Below are positions 46,175 through 56,319 of a stretch of DNA of 64,000 bases, one piece after another; position 1 is the stretch's first letter, and every line of letters starts with the position of its first letter. The notes beneath the pieces were generated by a model that was given only the letters and a program-made list of their open reading frames with translations, was not told the DNA's origin and ran no database searches. The stretch spans positions 128,001 to 192,000 of the forward strand of contig CAWJMT010000005.1 of NCBI GenBank assembly GCA_963844035.1, given 5' to 3'. This DNA comes from an uncultured Gemmatimonadales bacterium (GTDB taxonomy: Bacteria > Gemmatimonadota > Gemmatimonadetes > Gemmatimonadales > GWC2-71-9). Position numbers and translations under genes: made by a program.

Positions 46175-46649
46175 ATGACGGCCACGGAGAGTCGGACCAA
46201 TACCGATCGCATCGAGAAGCGCGTCACGCTGCGCGTGCCGCGCTCCCGGGTGTGGCGCGCCCTCACCCGGGCGGAGGAGTTCGGCGCCTGGTTTGGCGCG
46301 AAGCTCGAGGGTGCGTTCGCCGAGGGAGCAACCGTGCGCGGCAAAATCACCATCAAGGGCTACGAGCATGTGATGCTGGAGATGCTCGTCGAACGGATCC
46401 AGCCCGAGCGGCTCTTCTCGTACCGGTGGCATCCCTACGCGGTTGACTCCAAGGTGGATTACTCGGCCGAGCCGACCACCCTCGTCGAGTTCCATCTGGA
46501 AGAGGTGCAGGGCAGTACGCTGCTCACGATCGTCGAGTCGGGGTTCGATCGCCTCCCGGCCTCGCGCCGCGCCGAGGCGTTCCGCATGAACGACGCGAGG
46601 GTGGACCGGGCAGGCGAAGAACCTGGAGCGGTATGTCACCACGGGCTAG
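46175..46649 (+). CDS. SRPBCC/AHSA1-family protein; frameshift near 3' end
   Basis: RVWRALT, WF, PERLFSYRWHP, TLVEF, LTIVESGFD. Confidence 0.85.
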
Positions 46650-46977
46650 CGCGGTCCGGCGCGCGGATCCGGCTCCCGTCTTCGCCGCGCTCGGCGACCG
46701 GACCCGCCTGCGTCTGGTCACGCGTCTGTGCGATGAGGGCCCGCTCTCGATCGCTCGCCTGAGCGACGGCGCCGGCGTCACCCGCCAGGCGGTCACGAAG
46801 CATCTCAACGCACTCGGCCGTGCCGGCGTGGTGCGTGGCGCGCGGCGGGGACGCGAGCGCATCTGGGAGCTCGAGCCCAAGCGCCTCCAGATGGCGAGCC
46901 GCTATCTCGACGAGGTCTCGGGGCAGTGGGACGCGGCGATCGATCGGCTGCGGGCGTTTCTGGAGGGCGAGTCCTGA
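46633..46977 (+). CDS. ArsR/SmtB-family regulator
   Basis: FAALGDRTRL, TRQAVTKHL..L..AGVV, GRERIW. Confidence 0.9.
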   Translation: MSPRASAVRRADPAPVFAALGDRTRLRLVTRLCDEGPLSIARLSDGAGVTRQAVTKHLNALGRAGVVRGARRGRERIWELEPKRLQMASRYLDEVSGQWDAAIDRLRAFLEGES

Positions 46978-47002: not shown

Positions 47003-47936
47003 TCAGAACGCGATCGCTGCCGCGATCTGAAAGGAGTACCCGAGGAACGTCGACGAGCCCGCGAACTCCCCGAAGTACCGGGCGCCCACGCTCACCCTAC
47101 GAGGCGGCAGCAGCACGGTGAAGCCGGCGCCGAGCGCGTTGACCTGGTAGCGCGCGGCGGCCTGCTCCGGGGTCACCGCCGGCCCGCTCTTCGCCGTCGT
47201 TTGCCACTGGCTGTACCCCACGAGCGCGAGCTGCAGGCTCATGTCGGGTTGCAGCGGCACGGTGTGCGTCACGGAATAGTCGATGCTCAGCGTCTGACCG
47301 GGGTGAAGCTCGGTGCCCTCCTGCGTGCCGTGGAACTCGTAGATCTCGAAGGCCGAAAGGGCGGTGGTCTTGCTCTTCGACAGCCAGAAAGTCTCCCCGG
47401 CCGACAGCGTGTGCGTCCAGTAGCCGGAGCCGACATTGTCGCTCGCGCCGGCCTGGAACCGTCCCGTGGGGGCCAGGAATCCGTAGACCGCCTTGAGGTC
47501 CGCGCGGGGCAGCTGCCAGCCGAGGATGGCCACCTGGTAGTAGGAGTCGGCGAACCCGCCGCCCCCGCTCATCGCCCCTAGTTCGTCGGAGGAAAGCGAG
47601 TTGTTGGCGATGGGCAATGTTGCAGCCATGGAGAACTTCGCGTTGCCCAACGCGGTGAGCGGCTTGGCGCTCACCCACACGAAGGTATTCATGTCCATCA
47701 GGACCGAGTTCTGACCCGTGGCGAGCACCTCGCCGTCGGGGCCTACGGACTCATCACGCGCGTAGAACAGAAACGCGTTGACGTAGCTGAAGCCGGGCTG
47801 GGCCAGGACGCCCTGAGTTGATCGCGCTCATGCCGAGCGGGTACACGCCCGCGCACCTGCGCGACGCCCGGGACGGCGGGCAGCGCGGCGGCGCAGGCCA
47901 GCACCCCGGCCGTCCGGATCAGCGCGCGCGGCCATA
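47003..47936 (-). CDS. SphA/MetA-pathway-type outer-membrane beta-barrel; frameshifted at 5' end
   Basis: Signal peptide, APTGRF...NVGSGYW, GYSQWQTT, terminal Phe. Confidence 0.7.
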
Positions 47937-48783
47937 TCAAGCGGGCCCGCTCGGCGTGTGGAGAGGAACCGCGAGAGCCCCATCAGCACCAGGAGTCCTG
48001 CCAGGGCCACGACCGTGATCATCACGACCACCTGGGGATCCGTGAAGTTCTGACCGCCGACGACGAGGGCCGCCGCGATGTTGCGCTGCGCGGTCCCGAG
48101 CCCGAGGACCCACCGCGTATCGAGGTCGGGCCCACCGAGCAGGTAGCCGACGCCGACGCCCCAGGCGAGAAACAGGACCCCTGCGAGGATCGCCCCGGTG
48201 CCGAACACCGCGACCACGTTGCTCGAGATTCGTGATGGTGATCAGCGACATCACGAGGATCAGGCTGATGTTGGCGATCCGATCGAGGGTCGGCTTCACG
48301 GCCGGCGGCCGCGGTCGCGTACCGCGCCTTCACCGCGAGCCCGACGCCGAGCGGAAGCAGCATGAGCAGGACGAGCGAGCGGGCGATCCGCGCAACGTCC
48401 ACCGAGACGCCGGCGAGCAGCATGGGCAAGACGAGCGGCATGTAGCCGATCGTGAGCACCATGAGCAGCACCATCAGGCCGACCGCGACGGCCTGGTTCG
48501 CTTTGGCCACGCTCGCGAGCTTGGGGAGAAACGGCGCCCCGGCCGCGGCTCCGAGCACCAGCAGTCCGGCGGCAGGGCCCGGCTCGAGGTGCAGCAGTCT
48601 CGCGAGCCCGATCGCTCCCAGCGGCATAGCCACGAAGTTGGCGAGCAGCGCGAGTGAGACGAGCCGCGCATTGCGCAGCGGCTCCACGATCTGGCGGACG
48701 GTGAGACTGAGGCCCATGGCGAGCATGCTGGACACCACAAACGCCAGCATCGCGATCGGGACGGCCTTACTCAGCAATTGCAT
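47937..48783 (-). CDS. Bile acid:sodium symporter (BASS) family protein; frameshifted
   Basis: MLAMGL, LANFVAMP, AGAPFLPKL, GTAQRNIAAAL. Confidence 0.8.
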
Positions 48784-48802
48784 CGGTATCTCCGACTGCC
48801 CG

Positions 48803-49819
48803 TCACTTCATGAGCGCGAGGTTGCGCCAGAAGTTGGCGAGGCTGTCCGTGCCGCCGAACAGCGTCGTGAAGTTGGTCGAATCGACGAGCAGGATGTGGC
48901 CGGCGCGCGGGGCCTTGGGCGGCATCCATAGCAAGGTTGTGAACTCCTTGTTGCCGGCCGCAATGAAGGGATGGGGCCGATCGAGGTCGACGGGCTGTCG
49001 TGCGAGCACTTGCACGGCCTTGCTCTCTCCGGCGGTCAGCTCGTAGTGCGGCAGGTGGGGGTGGAAGTTGAACGTGGTGACGTTCCGGAGCAGGCCGAGC
49101 GCGTCCAGGTCCCGAAACGCCGTCAGCGGTGCGATCTCTTTCGTGCCCTTCACCACCGCGGGCCGGAGCCCGTACTTGTTGGTGACGGGGACGTCGAGCG
49201 CTCGCATGAGCGAGCGGGTGTACTGGCCGAACCGCTGCTGACGCGGCACGAGCGGGTCGCCGTGGTGCTGGTACTCCACCTGCCGCTGTTGCATGTCGGC
49301 GGTGAAGCCGACGTCGTGATGGGGCGCGAGCAACAGGCACGTGCCCTCGCGCTTGAGCCATTCCTGGATCGCCGCGACCTCGTCCGCGGTGGCCTCCTGC
49401 TCGGACAAGAGGTGGTCGAGGCCGAAGACCATGAGCGTGTCGGTGTCGGCCAGGATCCGCTCGTCGATGGGCTGCCTGTAGCCCGCCTGATCGATGCGCT
49501 GGAACACCGCGACCGGGTGGCCGGTGGCTTCGCCGGCGAGCCCCTGGAAGCTGAGGGTGGAGCGGTGGAACAGCTCCAGCGTACCGGCAATGCCCTGGAG
49601 GAACTGCGCCGCGCTGTACTCCGGCGTCTCGTAGGCGGGCCAGAGCGCGTTGCGCACCTCGGTGATGGTGGAGAAGCGGTTTTCCATGGCCGCGGGATCG
49701 CGCTGCGCCTCCCACGGGTAGCTCCACGTCCAGTAGATGCTGATGCGCCGCTTGCCCTTCGCGTACTTCCGAGGGACGTGGCTCTGATTGTAGGTGCGTG
49801 CCTGCGGTAGCGTGCTCAT
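48803..49819 (-). CDS. Hypothetical protein of the DyP cluster (in frame with DyP in this assembly)
   Basis: Ordered globular sequence with strong GC3 bias; motifs YWTWSYPWE, LLLAPHHDVG, FNFHPHLPHY. Confidence 0.7.
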   Translation of the reverse strand: MSTLPQARTYNQSHVPRKYAKGKRRISIYWTWSYPWEAQRDPAAMENRFSTITEVRNALWPAYETPEYSAAQFLQGIAGTLELFHRSTLSFQGLAGEATGHPVAVFQRIDQAGYRQPIDERILADTDTLMVFGLDHLLSEQEATADEVAAIQEWLKREGTCLLLAPHHDVGFTADMQQRQVEYQHHGDPLVPRQQRFGQYTRSLMRALDVPVTNKYGLRPAVVKGTKEIAPLTAFRDLDALGLLRNVTTFNFHPHLPHYELTAGESKAVQVLARQPVDLDRPHPFIAAGNKEFTTLLWMPPKAPRAGHILLVDSTNFTTLFGGTDSLANFWRNLALMK

Positions 49820-51147
49820 GCTGCAGTCCTTCCCCAGGGCGGCGAGGTACCGGAGGGCCTTCAGTCCCGGCAGAAAGAAATACGCGCCGCCGCGCACGGT
49901 GGTGAACGCCGGCAGACCCTTGATCGTCTTGCGGATCGGACGTTTCGGGATCTTGTACTCGAGCGTGCCGTCCTGCAGCCCGATGATCGGGTCGCGCTCG
50001 TTGCCGAGCTCGTGGAAGTTGCGGTCGTTGATCCACACGTTCTGCGCGAACTCGAATTGGCGGATCAGGCTCGCACAGATCACGAACGCGGCGATGCCGC
50101 GCTCCACGCCGTCGTCGGGCGCATTCTCGGGCAGCGCGGGGCCGTAGGTGGCGCCGCGGCGAATCATGCGGCGGCGGTTCATGTTGGCGGCCGTGTCGCG
50201 CGGGTTCATGCGGCGGATATGGGAGCCGAGCGGCACGGCGTAGCCGTGCGGGTCCATCTCTTTGTAGTTGAAATCGTTGTTCCGGTTCGGGTCGGCGCCG
50301 AGCGCGGGATCGTCGTGGTCCGGCGCGAGCACGAGCGGCGCGCCGCTGCGCCAGCGTCCCATGAGCTTCGCGGCCACGAGCTCCTGCTCCTCGGGCGTGT
50401 TCCCGTGTTGACGCAGGAACTCGCGGAAGGCGCCGACGTGCTCCTCCATGCGGCGATACGCCATGAAGCTGCCGTTGCGGGACAGGATCTCGGGCTGCGG
50501 CAGCAGGGCCGGGGGTCCGTCTTCGTCGGGGTAGCCGAGGATGAACTCCCCCGGCTTGAGCGGCGCGCCGGAGCCGGGCGTCGGCTCCTCGCCGCTGCCT
50601 TCAATGACCGGCTGCGAGAGCCGATCGCGATAGCCGAAGTGGTCGTGGGCGTAGTCGAACGGCGGCGTCCCTTCGAGGTCCAGCGCGGAGAGCACCTTCA
50701 CTCCCTGGCACCGCGGCGACGAGCTTCTCGTGCTCGCTCTGACACCGCCCGCGCTCGGCGGCGTCGCGCGCGAAGAGGATGACAATGGCATGCAGGTCGG
50801 GGCTCGCGAGGCCTCCCACCCACGTGGGCGGGGTCGTTCGCGCCCGTGTCGCCGAGCACCTCCGCGCGCGCCGCCATCCCCTGCTTGAACTCCTCCGGAA
50901 ACGTCGCGAGCGATGTCTCATCGACGCCGAGCGCGCGCAGCCCGTTCGCCGTGAAAGCGACGGTGACCCAGCGAGCGTCCTTCTCCACCGAGGCCCGGAC
51001 CTGGGCAGCCGACTGCACCTTCTCGAGAATGCCGCTCAGCCACTGCCGTCCGGCGGCGGCGTTTTGAAAGGAGAGAAACTCGTACCGTCCCGTGAGCGCG
51101 GGCACGCGGGTGAGGAGGATGTGCTGGATGTCGTCGAACTCGAGCAT
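49820..51147 (-). CDS. Dyp-type heme peroxidase; frameshifted
   Basis: DDIQ, HFGYRDRLSQP, PGEFILGYP, NGSFMAYR, AAKLMGRWRSGAP, GSHIRRMNPRD, IRRGATYG, QFEFAQ, GGAYFFLP. Confidence 0.88.
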
Positions 51148-51163
51148 GCGAGACGCGCGCCGG

Positions 51164-51730
51164 CTACTGCATCTGGTCGAGCATGTCCGAGAACGCGGCC
51201 TTGAGCTTGAGCGCCTTCTTGATTTCGTCGGCGCTCACGTACGGGTACTCGCCGTACTCGAGGAAGCTGGGACGCTGATGCTCGCGCACGAACTTGATGA
51301 ACGCCGGCGTGTTCGTCTTCCAGTCTTCCGGAAAGCCGTCGAGGTTCTCGAACACCGTGTTGAGCCCGTACTTCGAGAACAGGGCCACGGCGTCCTCGGT
51401 GTACTTGTCGAAGTCCGTGTCGAAGATGCCCTGATACATGAAGTAGGTGTCCTTGCCGATGTCGAAGAGCACCCAGCGCAGGTAGTGCAGCTTGAGCACG
51501 GCGAGGCCGTCCGGCAGGCCGGCGATCGTCTTCTCGATCACGTTGCCGTACTCGCGGATGGCGGCTTCCCGACCGGGCTTGATCTTGGCGATGATGGTGA
51601 ACCCGTAGCAGGCCGGCGTCTTGGGGTAGATCGGCCCGTACCGACCCTGCTCGAGCTTGAAGTATCCCTCCTTCGGGATCGCCATGGCGGCGGGCTGGGT
51701 CCAGTCCTTTTTCTTCGGAGCCTCTGACAT
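51164..51730 (-). CDS. Hypothetical DyP-associated protein (possible alpha/beta barrel)
   Basis: Intact 188-aa ORF with strong codon bias; LHYLRWVLFD...FDTDFDKY.ED. Confidence 0.75.
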   Translation of the reverse strand: MSEAPKKKDWTQPAAMAIPKEGYFKLEQGRYGPIYPKTPACYGFTIIAKIKPGREAAIREYGNVIEKTIAGLPDGLAVLKLHYLRWVLFDIGKDTYFMYQGIFDTDFDKYTEDAVALFSKYGLNTVFENLDGFPEDWKTNTPAFIKFVREHQRPSFLEYGEYPYVSADEIKKALKLKAAFSDMLDQMQ

Positions 51731-51840: not shown

Positions 51841-52554
51841 CTACCGGCCGAAGTGATACCGGAGGCCCACGCGAGCACCCCCGTCGAATTCCTCCTTGGA
51901 GTTCCGCCATGAGGCGCCGAGCGACAGGTCCATGCGCGCAGCAATGGGAGCCTCAAGTTCGCCGAACACGCCACCCCCGAACCCCGACTCGTCGGAATAG
52001 GGGCTGGCGCTGAGCCCGGCGAACCAGCGCGTCCCGTGGTGCATGCCCTGATTGAATCCGACGCCGATCCGGAGCACGTCGCCGGTCGTGCCCATCGCTG
52101 TGGTCGGGTAGAACGTATCGGCCCGGAAGTGGAAACGGTCGCGACTGCCGAGCCGGAGATAGAGTGACGGAACGGCGCCCGTGATGCCCCCGCCGTTGAT
52201 GTCCTCAAACTGCACCGATGCGATCCCTACGCCCACCCCGACGATCCTTGCCTCGAGGGCTGCCTGCGCGCCGCCCCATCCCGTGTGACCACCGCGTTGC
52301 GTCAGGAAGCCGCCAAACGCCGAGAAGCGGGCGGTGCCGGAGGGCCGGAAATCGAGCTGGGCGCCACCGGCGTTGAACGGCACTGGATTTGTGCTGAGCA
52401 CGTCCCCCTCGCAGCTCAGCGAACGGTTCTCGAACTGGCCACCGCCCCAACCCAAACCGAGCTGGAACTTGCCTGTCGAATCGGGGCCGACCGAGACGGG
52501 TGCCACCTGCCAGGCGAGCAGGAGCAACGGGCCCTTGAAGGTTGCAAGGCGCAT
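51841..52554 (-). CDS. Hypothetical outer-membrane beta-barrel protein
   Basis: Signal-like start, Gly-rich amphipathic strands, ends VGLRYHFGR. Confidence 0.6.
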   Translation of the reverse strand: MRLATFKGPLLLLAWQVAPVSVGPDSTGKFQLGLGWGGGQFENRSLSCEGDVLSTNPVPFNAGGAQLDFRPSGTARFSAFGGFLTQRGGHTGWGGAQAALEARIVGVGVGIASVQFEDINGGGITGAVPSLYLRLGSRDRFHFRADTFYPTTAMGTTGDVLRIGVGFNQGMHHGTRWFAGLSASPYSDESGFGGGVFGELEAPIAARMDLSLGASWRNSKEEFDGGARVGLRYHFGR

Positions 52555-53617: not shown

Positions 53618-53724
53618 GCAAATCTGTGCATAAATTGCATGATATTAGTTACGTTCTGCAGATAGTCATAGCTATCGTAGTGTAGGACGTTGACAAATTC
53701 GTGCACGATTTGCATATTATTTGC
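53618..53724 (+). ncRNA. Candidate structured RNA / long dyad upstream of P-II
   Basis: AT-rich long imperfect inverted repeat; hand folding gives five G-U pairs and no A-C mismatch on the + strand. Confidence 0.4.
53690..53718 (+). promoter_or_regulatory. Sigma70-like promoter for P-II gene
   Basis: TTGACA-N17-CATATT. Confidence 0.55.
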
Positions 53725-53822
53725 GAGTCGACGCTGTTCGGTGGCAGGTCGGGGTCGATCGCATCGGTGTGATTGCTACCAGCACCGTGCTGGCTGGGGC
53801 GAAGGGTCAAATCGGAGGGGCC

Positions 53823-54218
53823 ATGAAACTGATCACCGCCGTAGTTCGCCCTGAAAGCCTGCCGCAGGTGAAGGCGGCCTTGTTTCGCGCGGGAGTTACG
53901 GGGATCACGATCAGCCGCGTGAGTGGGCACGGCGGTGAGCGCGAGCTGCTCGAAACCTATCGCGGGACGACCGTGGTGCTGGAATTCAAAGAGAAGGTGC
54001 GCCTCGAGATGGCGTGCTCCGAGCCATTCGTGGAGCCTACCATCAAGGCCATCCTCTCTTCGGCGCGAACCGGTGAAGTAGGGGATGGAAAGATCTTCGT
54101 GCAGCCGCTCGAGCGGGTCATCCGGATTAGAACAGGAGAACAAGACAACGCGGCCCTCACCGCGGTGAATGCAACGGCTGTCCAACAACGCGCAATAGTA
54201 GACGAAATGACGAGATAG
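53823..54218 (+). CDS. P-II family nitrogen regulator (GlnB/GlnK)
   Basis: MKLITAVVRP, YRG, K58, RTGEVGDGKIFV, RIRTGE; RBS ggagggg. Confidence 0.95.
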   Translation: MKLITAVVRPESLPQVKAALFRAGVTGITISRVSGHGGERELLETYRGTTVVLEFKEKVRLEMACSEPFVEPTIKAILSSARTGEVGDGKIFVQPLERVIRIRTGEQDNAALTAVNATAVQQRAIVDEMTR

Positions 54219-54319: not shown

Positions 54320-55293
54320 ATGCGTTTCCTCCAAGTCTCCATTCAATCCGAGCAGTACATCGGCGTAGTTGCCGAAACTCCGACCCCGGTTGCGGGACCC
54401 GGCGAGGTCCTGATCCGCGTCGCGGCCTCCGGTCTGAACCGCGCTGACCTGTCGCAGATCGCCGGCCGCTATCCGCCGCCCCCCGGCGAGTCCACCATCC
54501 TCGGCCTCGAAGTCTCGGGAGCGATCGCAACAACCGGTGAGCCGGTCTGCGCGCTCCTCGCGGGGGGCGGGCACGCCGAGTACGTGGCGGTGCCCGTCGG
54601 GCAGATCTTTCCGGCTCCCGCTGGGATGGAGGTGGCGACGGCCGCCGGCATTCCGGAAGCGTTTCTCACTGCCTTCGTGAACCTGGTGCTCGAGGGCAAC
54701 CTGCGCCCGGGCGGCACCGCGCTCGTGCATGCGGGGGCGTCCGGGGTCGGGCTGGCGGCGATCCAGCTGGCCAAGTTTCTCGGTGCACGGGTTGCCGCGA
54801 CCACGCGCAGCCGAGAAAAACTCCCCGCGCTCGAACGAGCCGGGGCGGACCTCGCGATCCACGCCCCCAACGACGACCTCGTGACCACCATCGAGTCGCA
54901 CTGGGGGGCGGGCGCGGTGAACGTGATCCTCGACCCGGTCGGAGCGGCAACGCTCGGTGCCGACCTGGCACTGCTCGCCACCGGAGGATCGGTGGTATTC
55001 CTCGCCACAATGTCCGGGGCCCGGGCGGAGCTCGACATCTCAGCGACTGATGAAACGGCGGGCACGCATCGTGGGTTCGACACTGCGGTCGCGCAGCCGG
55101 CCCGAGAAGGCGGCGATCGTGGCCCGGTTCCGCGATGAAATCCTGCCCGGGTTCGCGTCGGGACGGCTGAGCGTCACGGTCGACTCGGTGCTTCCCTCCC
55201 AACCGGGCGGCGGAGGCCTTTCAGCGGATGCGCGAGAACAAGAACACCGGCAAGATCCTGATCGACTGGGGAGGGCAGCAAAAAGCTCAGTGA
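54320..55293 (+). CDS. NAD(P)H-quinone oxidoreductase, PIG3 family; frameshifted
   Basis: GLNRAD..Q..G.YPPPPG, GLEVSG, HAGASGVG, GSTLRSR, NTGKI. Confidence 0.88.
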
Positions 55294-55751
55294 GGCAGGC
55301 GAGGCCTCATCCAGCCGTAGGCGTAGGTCCCGGCCAGTGCCGCGAGCACCGGGACCAGGATGACCGTCAAGCCACTGCCGACCAGGGCGAACAGCGGACC
55401 CGGACAGGCGCCGGTAAACGCCCAGCCGATCCCGAACAGCGACCCGCCTGCCCAGTAGCGAACCCCGCGTCCCATCGCCTTCGGAGCGATCGCGATGTCT
55501 TCCCCGCGCAGCGTGGTTACGCGGTAACGCTTGATCAGGGCGATCGAGACGCCCGCTACGATGACCGCAGACGCGAGGATCCCATACATATGGAAGGACT
55601 GAAACCGGAACATCTCCTGGATACGGAACCAGGACACGGCTTCGGACTTCGTCAGCACGACGCCGAACAGGACGCCCAAAACAAAGTACAGGGTGAGATC
55701 GCGCGGGCCGTACCGGACGGGACGAGTGGGAGCGGCGAGGGTCGTCGTCAT
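55287..55751 (-). CDS. YeeE/YedE-family sulfur-compound transporter subunit
   Basis: FGIGWAFTGACPGP. Confidence 0.85.
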   Translation of the reverse strand: MTTTLAAPTRPVRYGPRDLTLYFVLGVLFGVVLTKSEAVSWFRIQEMFRFQSFHMYGILASAVIVAGVSIALIKRYRVTTLRGEDIAIAPKAMGRGVRYWAGGSLFGIGWAFTGACPGPLFALVGSGLTVILVPVLAALAGTYAYGWMRPRLPH

Positions 55752-55761
55752 CGATCCGTCA

Positions 55762-56319
55762 TCACAAAATGCGCGGCAATAGGACGAAGGTCGCGAGCAG
55801 GCCGCCGGCAAAGAAGCCCAGCACGGCGACCAGGGACGGCCGCTCGAGGTTCGCGAGCCCGGCGATGCCGTGCCCCGATGTGCACCCTCCGGCATACGCT
55901 GTGCCGAAGCCGACGCAGAATCCACCGGCCACGAGCAACACAAGACCTCGCGCGCTCAGGACGCTTGACCAGGTGAACAGCTCGCGCGGGGCGAGGCCGG
56001 CGAAGTCGTGAATACCCAATGCCGCGAGATCGGCTTGTGTGGCGGCCGAGATGGCGACGGCGGGGGAGGCGAGCAGGTTGCCGCCGATGAACCCACCGAG
56101 CACCACGCCCGCGAGGAAGATGAGGTTCCACAGGCCGGCTTCTTTCCACTCATAGCGAAAGAATGAAACCCGTCGGGGGGCCAGCGCGGCGCAGAGGTGC
56201 CGCAGATTGCTCGAGATGCCGAGCGACTTGTTGTCCAGCACGAGGAGCGCGGGAACGAAAAGCCCGATGAGCGGACCGGCGACGTACCACGGCCACGGGT
56301 GGTGAAGTAGTGTTGTCAC
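55762..56319 (-). CDS. YeeE/YedE-family sulfur-compound transporter subunit
   Basis: WPWYVAGPLIG, GISS, AGGCTSGHGI. Confidence 0.88.
   Translation of the reverse strand: MTTLLHHPWPWYVAGPLIGLFVPALLVLDNKSLGISSNLRHLCAALAPRRVSFFRYEWKEAGLWNLIFLAGVVLGGFIGGNLLASPAVAISAATQADLAALGIHDFAGLAPRELFTWSSVLSARGLVLLVAGGFCVGFGTAYAGGCTSGHGIAGLANLERPSLVAVLGFFAGGLLATFVLLPRIL

Follow-up and report, generated by a model that had tools for sequence, protein, structure and literature searches.

The window, a 64,000-nucleotide stretch of DNA from an uncultured Gemmatimonadales bacterium, belongs to a genome bin of 3.47 Mb (84% complete; contig C5) and carries on its minus strand a run of five genes, from position 51730 to 47003, that includes a gene for a dye-decolourising peroxidase (DyP). 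The genes follow one another in the order A, DyP, C, BASS symporter and outer-membrane barrel (Table 1), with gaps of 16 nt between A and DyP and 19 nt between C and BASS. An earlier reading made from the sequence alone (the original prediction) had described them as tightly packed and co-oriented, and had found no evident signal peptide in the three soluble products A, DyP and C. Both statements hold: neither a hydrophobic nor a twin-arginine leader is seen in the three proteins, whose best 10-residue hydropathy is 0.35 (A), 1.44 (DyP) and 0.07 (C), with a value of 2.76 for BASS. The motifs it quoted are also real, FGYRDRL, HIRRMNPR and MIRRG lying in the C-terminal frame of the DyP gene and PHHD and HPHLPH in C.

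Table 1. Genes of the DyP locus (positions in the window).
Feature	Position	Strand	Basis
Gene A, unnamed family, 188 aa	51164..51730	-	Constant neighbour of this DyP class; at least 7781 homologues
DyP-type heme peroxidase, class V (former C), about 440 aa in relatives, motif GYRDR	49817..51147, 3' end approximate	-	PF21105; 8RE2 match E 4e-90
Gene C, unnamed family, 338 aa, predicted class I GATase/ThuA/IFT52-like fold	48803..49819	-	At least 5820 homologues; predicted structure
BASS/SBF-family symporter, accessory	47937..48783, 3' end approximate	-	PF01758, E 7e-14
SphA/MetA-type outer-membrane barrel, accessory, signal-peptide-like N-terminus	47003..47935, start approximate	-	PF13557, E 4e-35

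A genome scan with C returned at least 565 relatives, of which we analysed the best 80 (73 from Actinomycetota and 7 from Pseudomonadota, Binatota or Planctomycetota); counts given over 81 loci refer to these 80 C-seeded loci plus a second copy in the genome itself. DyP adjoins C in 79 of the 80, and A adjoins in 76, with three of the four misses falling at contig ends, so that the co-occurrence of the three soluble genes, which the original prediction had proposed as a check, is seen across several phyla. Because DyP and A are near-constant whereas BASS (4/81) and the MetA barrel (1/81) are rare, the conserved unit is made up of three genes, A, DyP and C, and not of five. The rarity of the transporters is seen although at least 2.2 kb were available downstream of C in 73 of the 80 loci, and among the seven loci from outside the Actinomycetota a barrel is found in one and BASS in two. 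The proposal that all five genes form one dedicated system is thus not supported by these counts, yet in the organism's own phylum, where strong C matches occur in 4 of 400 genomes and all four have A and DyP, a MetA barrel stands beside the module in three (once as a distant paralogue, 26% identical) and the fourth locus is cut by a contig end. The transporters are optional additions that nevertheless recur, particularly in hosts that have an outer membrane. Other neighbours include a SnoaL-like gene (12/81) and a pyridine nucleotide-disulfide oxidoreductase without its redox cysteines (Cys-less; 6/81); neither catabolic dehydrogenases nor a dedicated regulator were found among the conserved neighbours.

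Gene order varies while linkage is kept. A Burkholderiales metagenome-assembled genome (MAG; locus L001) has the identical five-gene order, and related soil contigs bridge C to BASS and BASS to the barrel; in Streptomyces the order is A-C-DyP, followed on plasmids by BASS, and plasmids of Nostoc carry the trio (A 88% and C 70% identical to those of this genome) with MarC instead of the transporters. The module is patchily distributed over soil bacteria from many phyla. A C gene was found in none of 40 close relatives of this genome and, apart from the seed, in none of 400 sampled Pseudomonadota genomes; genomes G954 and G1103 gave weak C matches, and no module gene was seen with the match in G676 (E 3e-5). 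When the search was instead seeded with DyP, 351 Actinomycetota genomes yielded 12 DyP matches at E <= 1e-60. Four of these are close DyPs (one being that of the seed genome), and A and C are adjacent in all four; of the eight distant ones, seven are accompanied by one or two A-like genes, and C is missing from all eight.

The DyP itself adds a member to a known class. PF21105 scores above its cutoff on the N-terminal piece of the protein, a 300-aa piece scores 89 bits with TIGR01413, whose cutoff is 100.5, and a PDB sequence search gave 20 matches, all to DyP-type peroxidases and led by 8RE2, the DyP of Deinococcus radiodurans (DrDyP). GYRD, MIRRG and HIRRMNPR align with the distal Asp, distal Arg and proximal His of DrDyP and of fungal DyPs, and all of 55 DyP sequences share D174, H309, R329 and R330; by these alignments the protein keeps its heme and catalytic residues and belongs to class V (former C), as the classes are defined in PMC9719856 and PMC8197335. 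No encapsulin gene appeared among the conserved neighbours, though no encapsulin profile search was made, and the DyPs end right after their last helix, where a cargo DyP would carry a targeting peptide. A DyP encoded together with transport genes is reminiscent of the class I DyPs of EfeUOB/FepABC iron-uptake operons (PMC8197335), but here there is no twin-arginine (Tat) leader and no EfeU or EfeO, TIGR01412 scores 19.7 against a cutoff of 428, and the transporters are optional; with BASS and a MetA barrel as its neighbours, the protein is not of the EfeB type.

The original prediction had also singled out the fifth position of the GXXDG motif, which is Arg here and not Gly. FGYRDRL aligns with the GXXD(G/M) region of DrDyP, and Arg occupies the position in 77 of the 79 motifs that could be parsed (82 rows, 3 unparsed), the Arg-motif DyPs forming one clade (support 100/100; 12 of 25 tree rows). 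As a requirement of the module the variant is ruled out by loci L075, L081 and L082, which have GxxDG and the full set of A, DyP and C. Since such loci exist, we regard the change as a marker of lineage. Arg at this position is compatible with membership of the DyP family, because DrDyP has Met there and its M190G variant, in which Gly is restored, is still low-spin at pH 7.5 (PMC10820274), with unchanged catalytic activity according to a 2026 review (PMC13234801).

Protein A belongs to a large family without a name (at least 7781 homologues among 7857 candidates). It has no Pfam, PHROG or PADLOC match, its NCBIfam and PDB sequence matches are at chance level, and searches of the PDB with the single sequence and with a profile returned nothing meaningful. 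The predicted model (predicted local distance difference test, pLDDT, 73) contains a ferredoxin-like core, residues 37-165, that resembles dimeric alpha+beta barrels. The best fold match is 9LTX (Z 8.4, root-mean-square deviation, rmsd, 3.2 over 109 residues), 1TUW follows at Z 7.3, and the proteins matched include the decarboxylase Abx(+)O (Z 8.4), the cyclase TcmI (Z 7.3) and, at Z 5-6, the heme-degrading MhuD and IsdG as well as HmoB; Foldseek gave no match at E <= 0.001. Although the predicted core resembles that of TcmI, Abx(+)O, the antibiotic biosynthesis (ABM) monooxygenases and MhuD/IsdG, A differs from these enzymes in its extra helices, in Z scores of at most 8.4 and in having no sequence or profile match to them, and scores in this range point to a type of fold but not to a function. 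In a comparison of 22 members, close and distant, R85 and P134 never vary and H82, Y110, G132 and Y162 hardly do, which gives a conserved set of H82-x-x-R85, Y110, P134 and Y162; within the close family Y31, W137 and Y162 are invariant and W86, Y99, Y110, Y159 and Y164 nearly invariant. A is probably a dimer, as suggested by distant loci in which A domains occur in tandem or as fused pairs. Several other ideas about A were discarded: homology to a DyP domain found no profile match (probability 0.5%), a role in defence or in phage found no PADLOC or PHROG match, and of 11 matches to longer A proteins the 9 examined are apparent frameshift read-throughs of adjacent genes.

Protein C likewise represents a large family without a name (at least 5820 homologues among 7999 scored candidates). 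There was no Pfam match, with zero families for C itself, and PDB searches with the single sequence and with a profile gave nothing meaningful; DUF4350 matches weakly (E 0.025) in 4 of 69 members of the C family, and atlas look-alikes reach 0.90-0.91. One relative, 91% identical to C, groups with proteins from Gemmatimonadota MAGs, a hint at the host group. The model of C (pLDDT 88; predicted template modelling score, pTM, 0.90) adopts an alpha/beta/alpha fold like that of class I glutamine amidotransferases (GATases), as the original prediction had guessed, and matches IFT52 (Z 14.4; 5FMS, rmsd 2.9 over 202 residues), a ThuA-like protein (Z 12.8) and, at Z of about 10, the metal amidohydrolases dimethylformamidase and N-acetyl-beta-Phe acylase. 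C lacks a conserved counterpart of the Cys nucleophile of class I GATases, since its single cysteine, Cys161, falls outside the conserved columns. All of 11 distant homologues, by contrast, retain H167, H168, H185, H186, H253, H255, H283, E54, E182, D135, D188 and D313, and this set of His, Asp and Glu residues suggests a metal site, so that C is likely a metalloenzyme. Dimethylformamidase carries an iron amidohydrolase site with two Tyr and one Glu as ligands on this fold (PMC7686228). While the predicted fold of C is that of ThuA-like, IFT52-GIFT and dimethylformamidase-type proteins (Z 10-14), C is only 6-15% identical to them, has no conserved Cys and has a His-rich set unlike the dimethylformamidase site.

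We note that more distant relatives of C (35-40% identical) turn up in another setting, in or beside bufferin-like gene clusters, in 9 of 80 metagenome loci and in Rhizobium sp. T1473 (together L085:7658-12703, L107, L109, L116, L117, L119, L120, L124, L127 and L170). These clusters include DUF2282, MNIO/DUF692, DUF2063, DoxX, sigma factor and DUF1109 genes, with the distant C usually between the MNIO and DUF2063 genes, and bufferins are described as copper chelators. The distant C is possibly an undescribed accessory enzyme of these bufferin-like clusters for ribosomally synthesised and post-translationally modified peptides; a term search of the main text of a survey of MNIO proteins found no C-like gene, which its supplements could list (PMC12452194).

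A second system with an A-like partner is provided by DrDyP (DR_A0145, 8RE2/8RE3), which, like the DyP of the window, is a cytoplasmic class V/C enzyme (43% identical to the intact relative) with a residue other than Gly at the fifth motif position (GYKDM). [quoted passage not shown] Neither "operon" nor "neighbor" nor "partner" appears in the available text of that paper, and the neighbouring genes go unmentioned. We found that the gene 1 nt upstream of DrDyP encodes a homologue of A (25% identity, E 6e-11). The locus differs from that in the window in that its third gene is catalase-like and not C, a 3-hydroxyacyl-CoA dehydrogenase gene lies upstream and no transporter is adjacent; the catalase-like protein, the downstream neighbour DR_A0146, reportedly has no catalase activity (PMC6300522). 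An A-like gene was present in all six further DyP loci, D. radiodurans included, that we chose from 46 matches in a plasmid collection; in this scoring three control proteins gave no score, and a fourth proved to be another A paralogue. Loci of Rhodococcus and Rhizobium reached through A show the same pairing of A-like gene and DyP. The gene of DrDyP and those of nearly all examined relatives thus sit beside the unnamed family A, which may bear on the inactivity of DrDyP alone at neutral pH.

In these sister clusters the third slot holds a gene of the catalase family, a cytochrome P450 gene, or a catalase-like gene together with one for an animal-type heme peroxidase. A 3-hydroxyacyl-CoA dehydrogenase gene stands beside the cluster in Deinococcus (L186, D. 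radiodurans), Sphingobium and Acinetobacter (L186, L188, L190); these loci of the DrDyP branch combine it with A-like and catalase-like genes, and have a TetR gene in two cases and an acyl-CoA thioesterase gene in one. Bacterial pairs of a heme dioxygenase and a catalase-related hydroperoxide lyase serve oxylipin pathways, and the sister clusters are similar in joining DyP and an A-like protein with animal-type heme peroxidases, catalase-like proteins or P450s. They differ in that none of those genes belongs to the A-DyP-C module itself, and a role for DyPs in oxylipin-type pathways was not found in the literature searched.

We favour, with a probability of about 0.5, a reading in which A, DyP and C make up a partner-dependent module of the cytoplasm, DyP needing A and passing its product to the predicted metalloenzyme C, with the transporters as optional additions. 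That the DyP gene travels with A and C across phyla makes it likely that DyP is part of a multi-protein unit, and the three products likely work together. A, probably dimeric, would bind or activate DyP or handle its product; DyP would yield an oxidised or peroxide-derived product and hand it to C; and C, in the slot held in sister clusters by catalase-like proteins, P450s or a heme dioxygenase-like protein, would cleave or hydrolyse that product at its putative metal site. The least certain step is the substrate, which may be an organic acid of hydrophobic character or its hydroperoxide, a fatty-acid derivative being one example, and which BASS and the MetA barrel, where present, would move. 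This is the weakest step because it draws on the sister clusters, and a lipid-like or hydroperoxide substrate is a tentative suggestion that we are more inclined to doubt than to accept. The natural substrates of DyPs are regarded as an open question (PMC10820274, PMC8197335).

A broader proposal, which we think more likely wrong than right, is that a whole branch of bacterial class V DyPs are not free peroxidases but the catalytic subunits of DyP-partner complexes acting on lipid or other organic hydroperoxides. A would be the activating subunit, and C a new metalloenzyme, rich in His and built on a GATase scaffold, that takes over the step performed elsewhere by catalase-like proteins or P450s. 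If A were the missing activating subunit, this would explain why DrDyP is inactive alone. The module defines two large unnamed families, one of which, C, is a candidate new type of metalloenzyme; no description of A, of C or of the A-DyP-C module was found in the literature searched, most subscription journals and supplements lying outside its reach.

Several observations weigh against the partner-dependent module. The 80 loci are the closest of at least 565 relatives and 73 of them are from Actinomycetota, so they are not independent. DyP and A are missing from all 80 metagenome loci of the distant C clade, many of which are short contigs, and C thus does not always need DyP; in a Pirellulales locus (L038:5281-8328) two copies of C flank a flavoprotein gene with no DyP or A within 12 kb, and the distant DyP of L099 has no A-like neighbour. 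The clue to fatty acids comes from the sister clusters and not from A-DyP-C loci: the 81 + 5 A-DyP-C loci yielded neither a 3-hydroxyacyl-CoA dehydrogenase nor a catalase-like gene, and the P450 matches near C (8/81) are weak, at 23-28% identity. The fold match of A is middling (best Z 8.4, pLDDT 73), and what points to metal binding by C is residue conservation. More generally, interaction and activity of the three proteins, and with them binding, metal and the order of steps, are what we infer from observed linkage and residues and from predicted folds.

Among the alternatives, a protective unit against stress that detoxifies peroxide or metal, in which DyP would remove peroxides, C would bind metal through its histidines and the flavoprotein, where present, would recycle reducing power, is unlikely in our view. 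The bufferin-like surroundings of the distant C relatives, the Cys-less oxidoreductase beside some modules and the patchy, plasmid-borne occurrence of the module (0/40 relatives) are all in its favour, but the bufferin link concerns a clade well removed from C, no regulator box is shared upstream of the loci, and the poor peroxidase activity of DrDyP, together with the lack of catalase activity reported for DR_A0146 (PMC6300522), runs contrary to plain removal of H2O2. That the five genes are, after all, one dedicated pathway for the import and conversion of a specific small molecule, with the transporters integral to it, seems a shade less likely again. Such a pathway would account for the identical order in the Burkholderiales MAG, for the soil contigs that bridge its junctions and for the barrels of the own-phylum carriers, and BASS has been recruited from two subfamilies across loci; it is difficult to reconcile with the scarcity of both transporters where downstream sequence was available, within and outside the Actinomycetota, with MarC in their place in Nostoc and with neighbours that include neither conserved catabolic dehydrogenases nor a dedicated regulator.

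We consider it improbable that A is the protein substrate of DyP (through oxidation of Tyr or Trp) or its client in heme exchange, yielding an active enzyme in a manner analogous to MauG-type cofactor biogenesis. The many invariant aromatic residues of the close family (Y31, W137, Y162), the heme-binding barrels MhuD, IsdG and HmoB among the fold matches and the near-constant adjacency of A and DyP would fit; across distant homologues, however, only H82, R85, Y110, G132, P134 and Y162 hold, and the heme proteins do not score above cofactor-free barrels. Finally, an ordinary stand-alone peroxidase with incidental neighbours would be consistent with the intact catalytic Asp, Arg and proximal His, but is scarcely credible and largely refuted by linkage that persists in several phyla and in differing gene orders. 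The original prediction had argued against a generic stand-alone DyP, and in this it is supported: the trio widely co-occurs, and no characterised pathway matched.

The two accessory genes belong to established families. BASS scores 52 bits with PF01758 (cutoff 24.3) and falls below the cutoffs of TIGR00841 and PanS, and the barrel scores 122 bits with PF13557 (Phenol_MetA_deg; cutoff 22), its signal-like leader spanning a frameshift here but uninterrupted in L001. Compared with the intact five-gene locus L001 (83% at the nucleotide level), the DyP, BASS and barrel genes contain six single-base insertions, at about 50824 and 50715 in DyP, 48305 and 48222 in BASS and 47850 and 47814 in the barrel (near the 5' end of the gene), with compensating gaps near 47931-47941 at the BASS-barrel junction. 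The DyP frame has no in-frame stop before C and reads into it; a true DyP-C fusion is ruled out, as 0 of 80 relatives show one. A related short-read contig lacks bases 48222 and 48302, and at 39816-42009 genes that we take from their motifs to be hisD-like and cation-diffusion-facilitator-like are also split across reading frames, which implies a general load of indels in the assembly. For both reasons the indels are probably assembly errors, likelier than pseudogenisation. None of the sequencing runs contains more than 9% of the words, so reads of this genome were not found; the contigs aligned to the locus stem from relatives and carry no expression information.

A sigma-70-like promoter was not found near the operon, and the upstream regions of 73 loci share no regulator box, only a short -10-like word in mycobacteria. 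In many mycobacterial loci (e.g. L004, L017, L021, L076) the start codon of A is preceded, at a distance of about 30-45 nt, by a word like GTAGTGTT or GTGCTACGTT, which is probably a -10 element.

The genome bin's second, different copy of the module (L081; G000:C39:3456-9652) lies on a 10-kb contig and comprises genes for a membrane protein, A, a SnoaL-like protein, a 5' remnant of DyP, a second A paralogue, a GFRDG-type DyP, a Cys-less flavoprotein and C. Its genes resemble those of planctomycete loci, the flavoprotein being 86% identical to that of L075, and the contig may therefore be misbinned or represent a second acquisition. The Cys-less oxidoreductase, in which GGMAAxDGPVP stands where both redox cysteines of CxxxxC would be, recurs in L075 (2701-4140), L002, L038, L056, L058, L081 and L095, beside the module and beside a sister DyP. 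In Rhizobium leguminosarum (L083:747-9969) a C-like gene follows genes for M28 and M4 peptidases, emfourin and a pyridoxal phosphate-dependent decarboxylase, at a locus that also has a divergent DyP-domain gene and an unknown gene. A frameshift-fused record (P0396) has twin-arginine-like leaders before both C and A, a pattern that is rare (1/120 A homologues, 0/120 C homologues) and suggests that some lineage may have an exported version of the module.

Around the operon in the window, a co-oriented 237-aa gene (51841-52554, minus strand) lies 110 nt upstream of A; its product starts with a signal-like N-terminus, ends in a Phe pattern like that of barrels, gave no Pfam or NCBIfam match and was not found in the 80 related loci. 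An ordinary pair of an SRPBCC/AHSA1 gene and an ArsR-type regulator (46175-46977, plus strand) converges on the 3' end of the operon, and further upstream of it are what we take to be a P-II-like gene (53721-54218, plus strand) and a YeeE/YedE-like membrane pair (55287-56319, minus strand).

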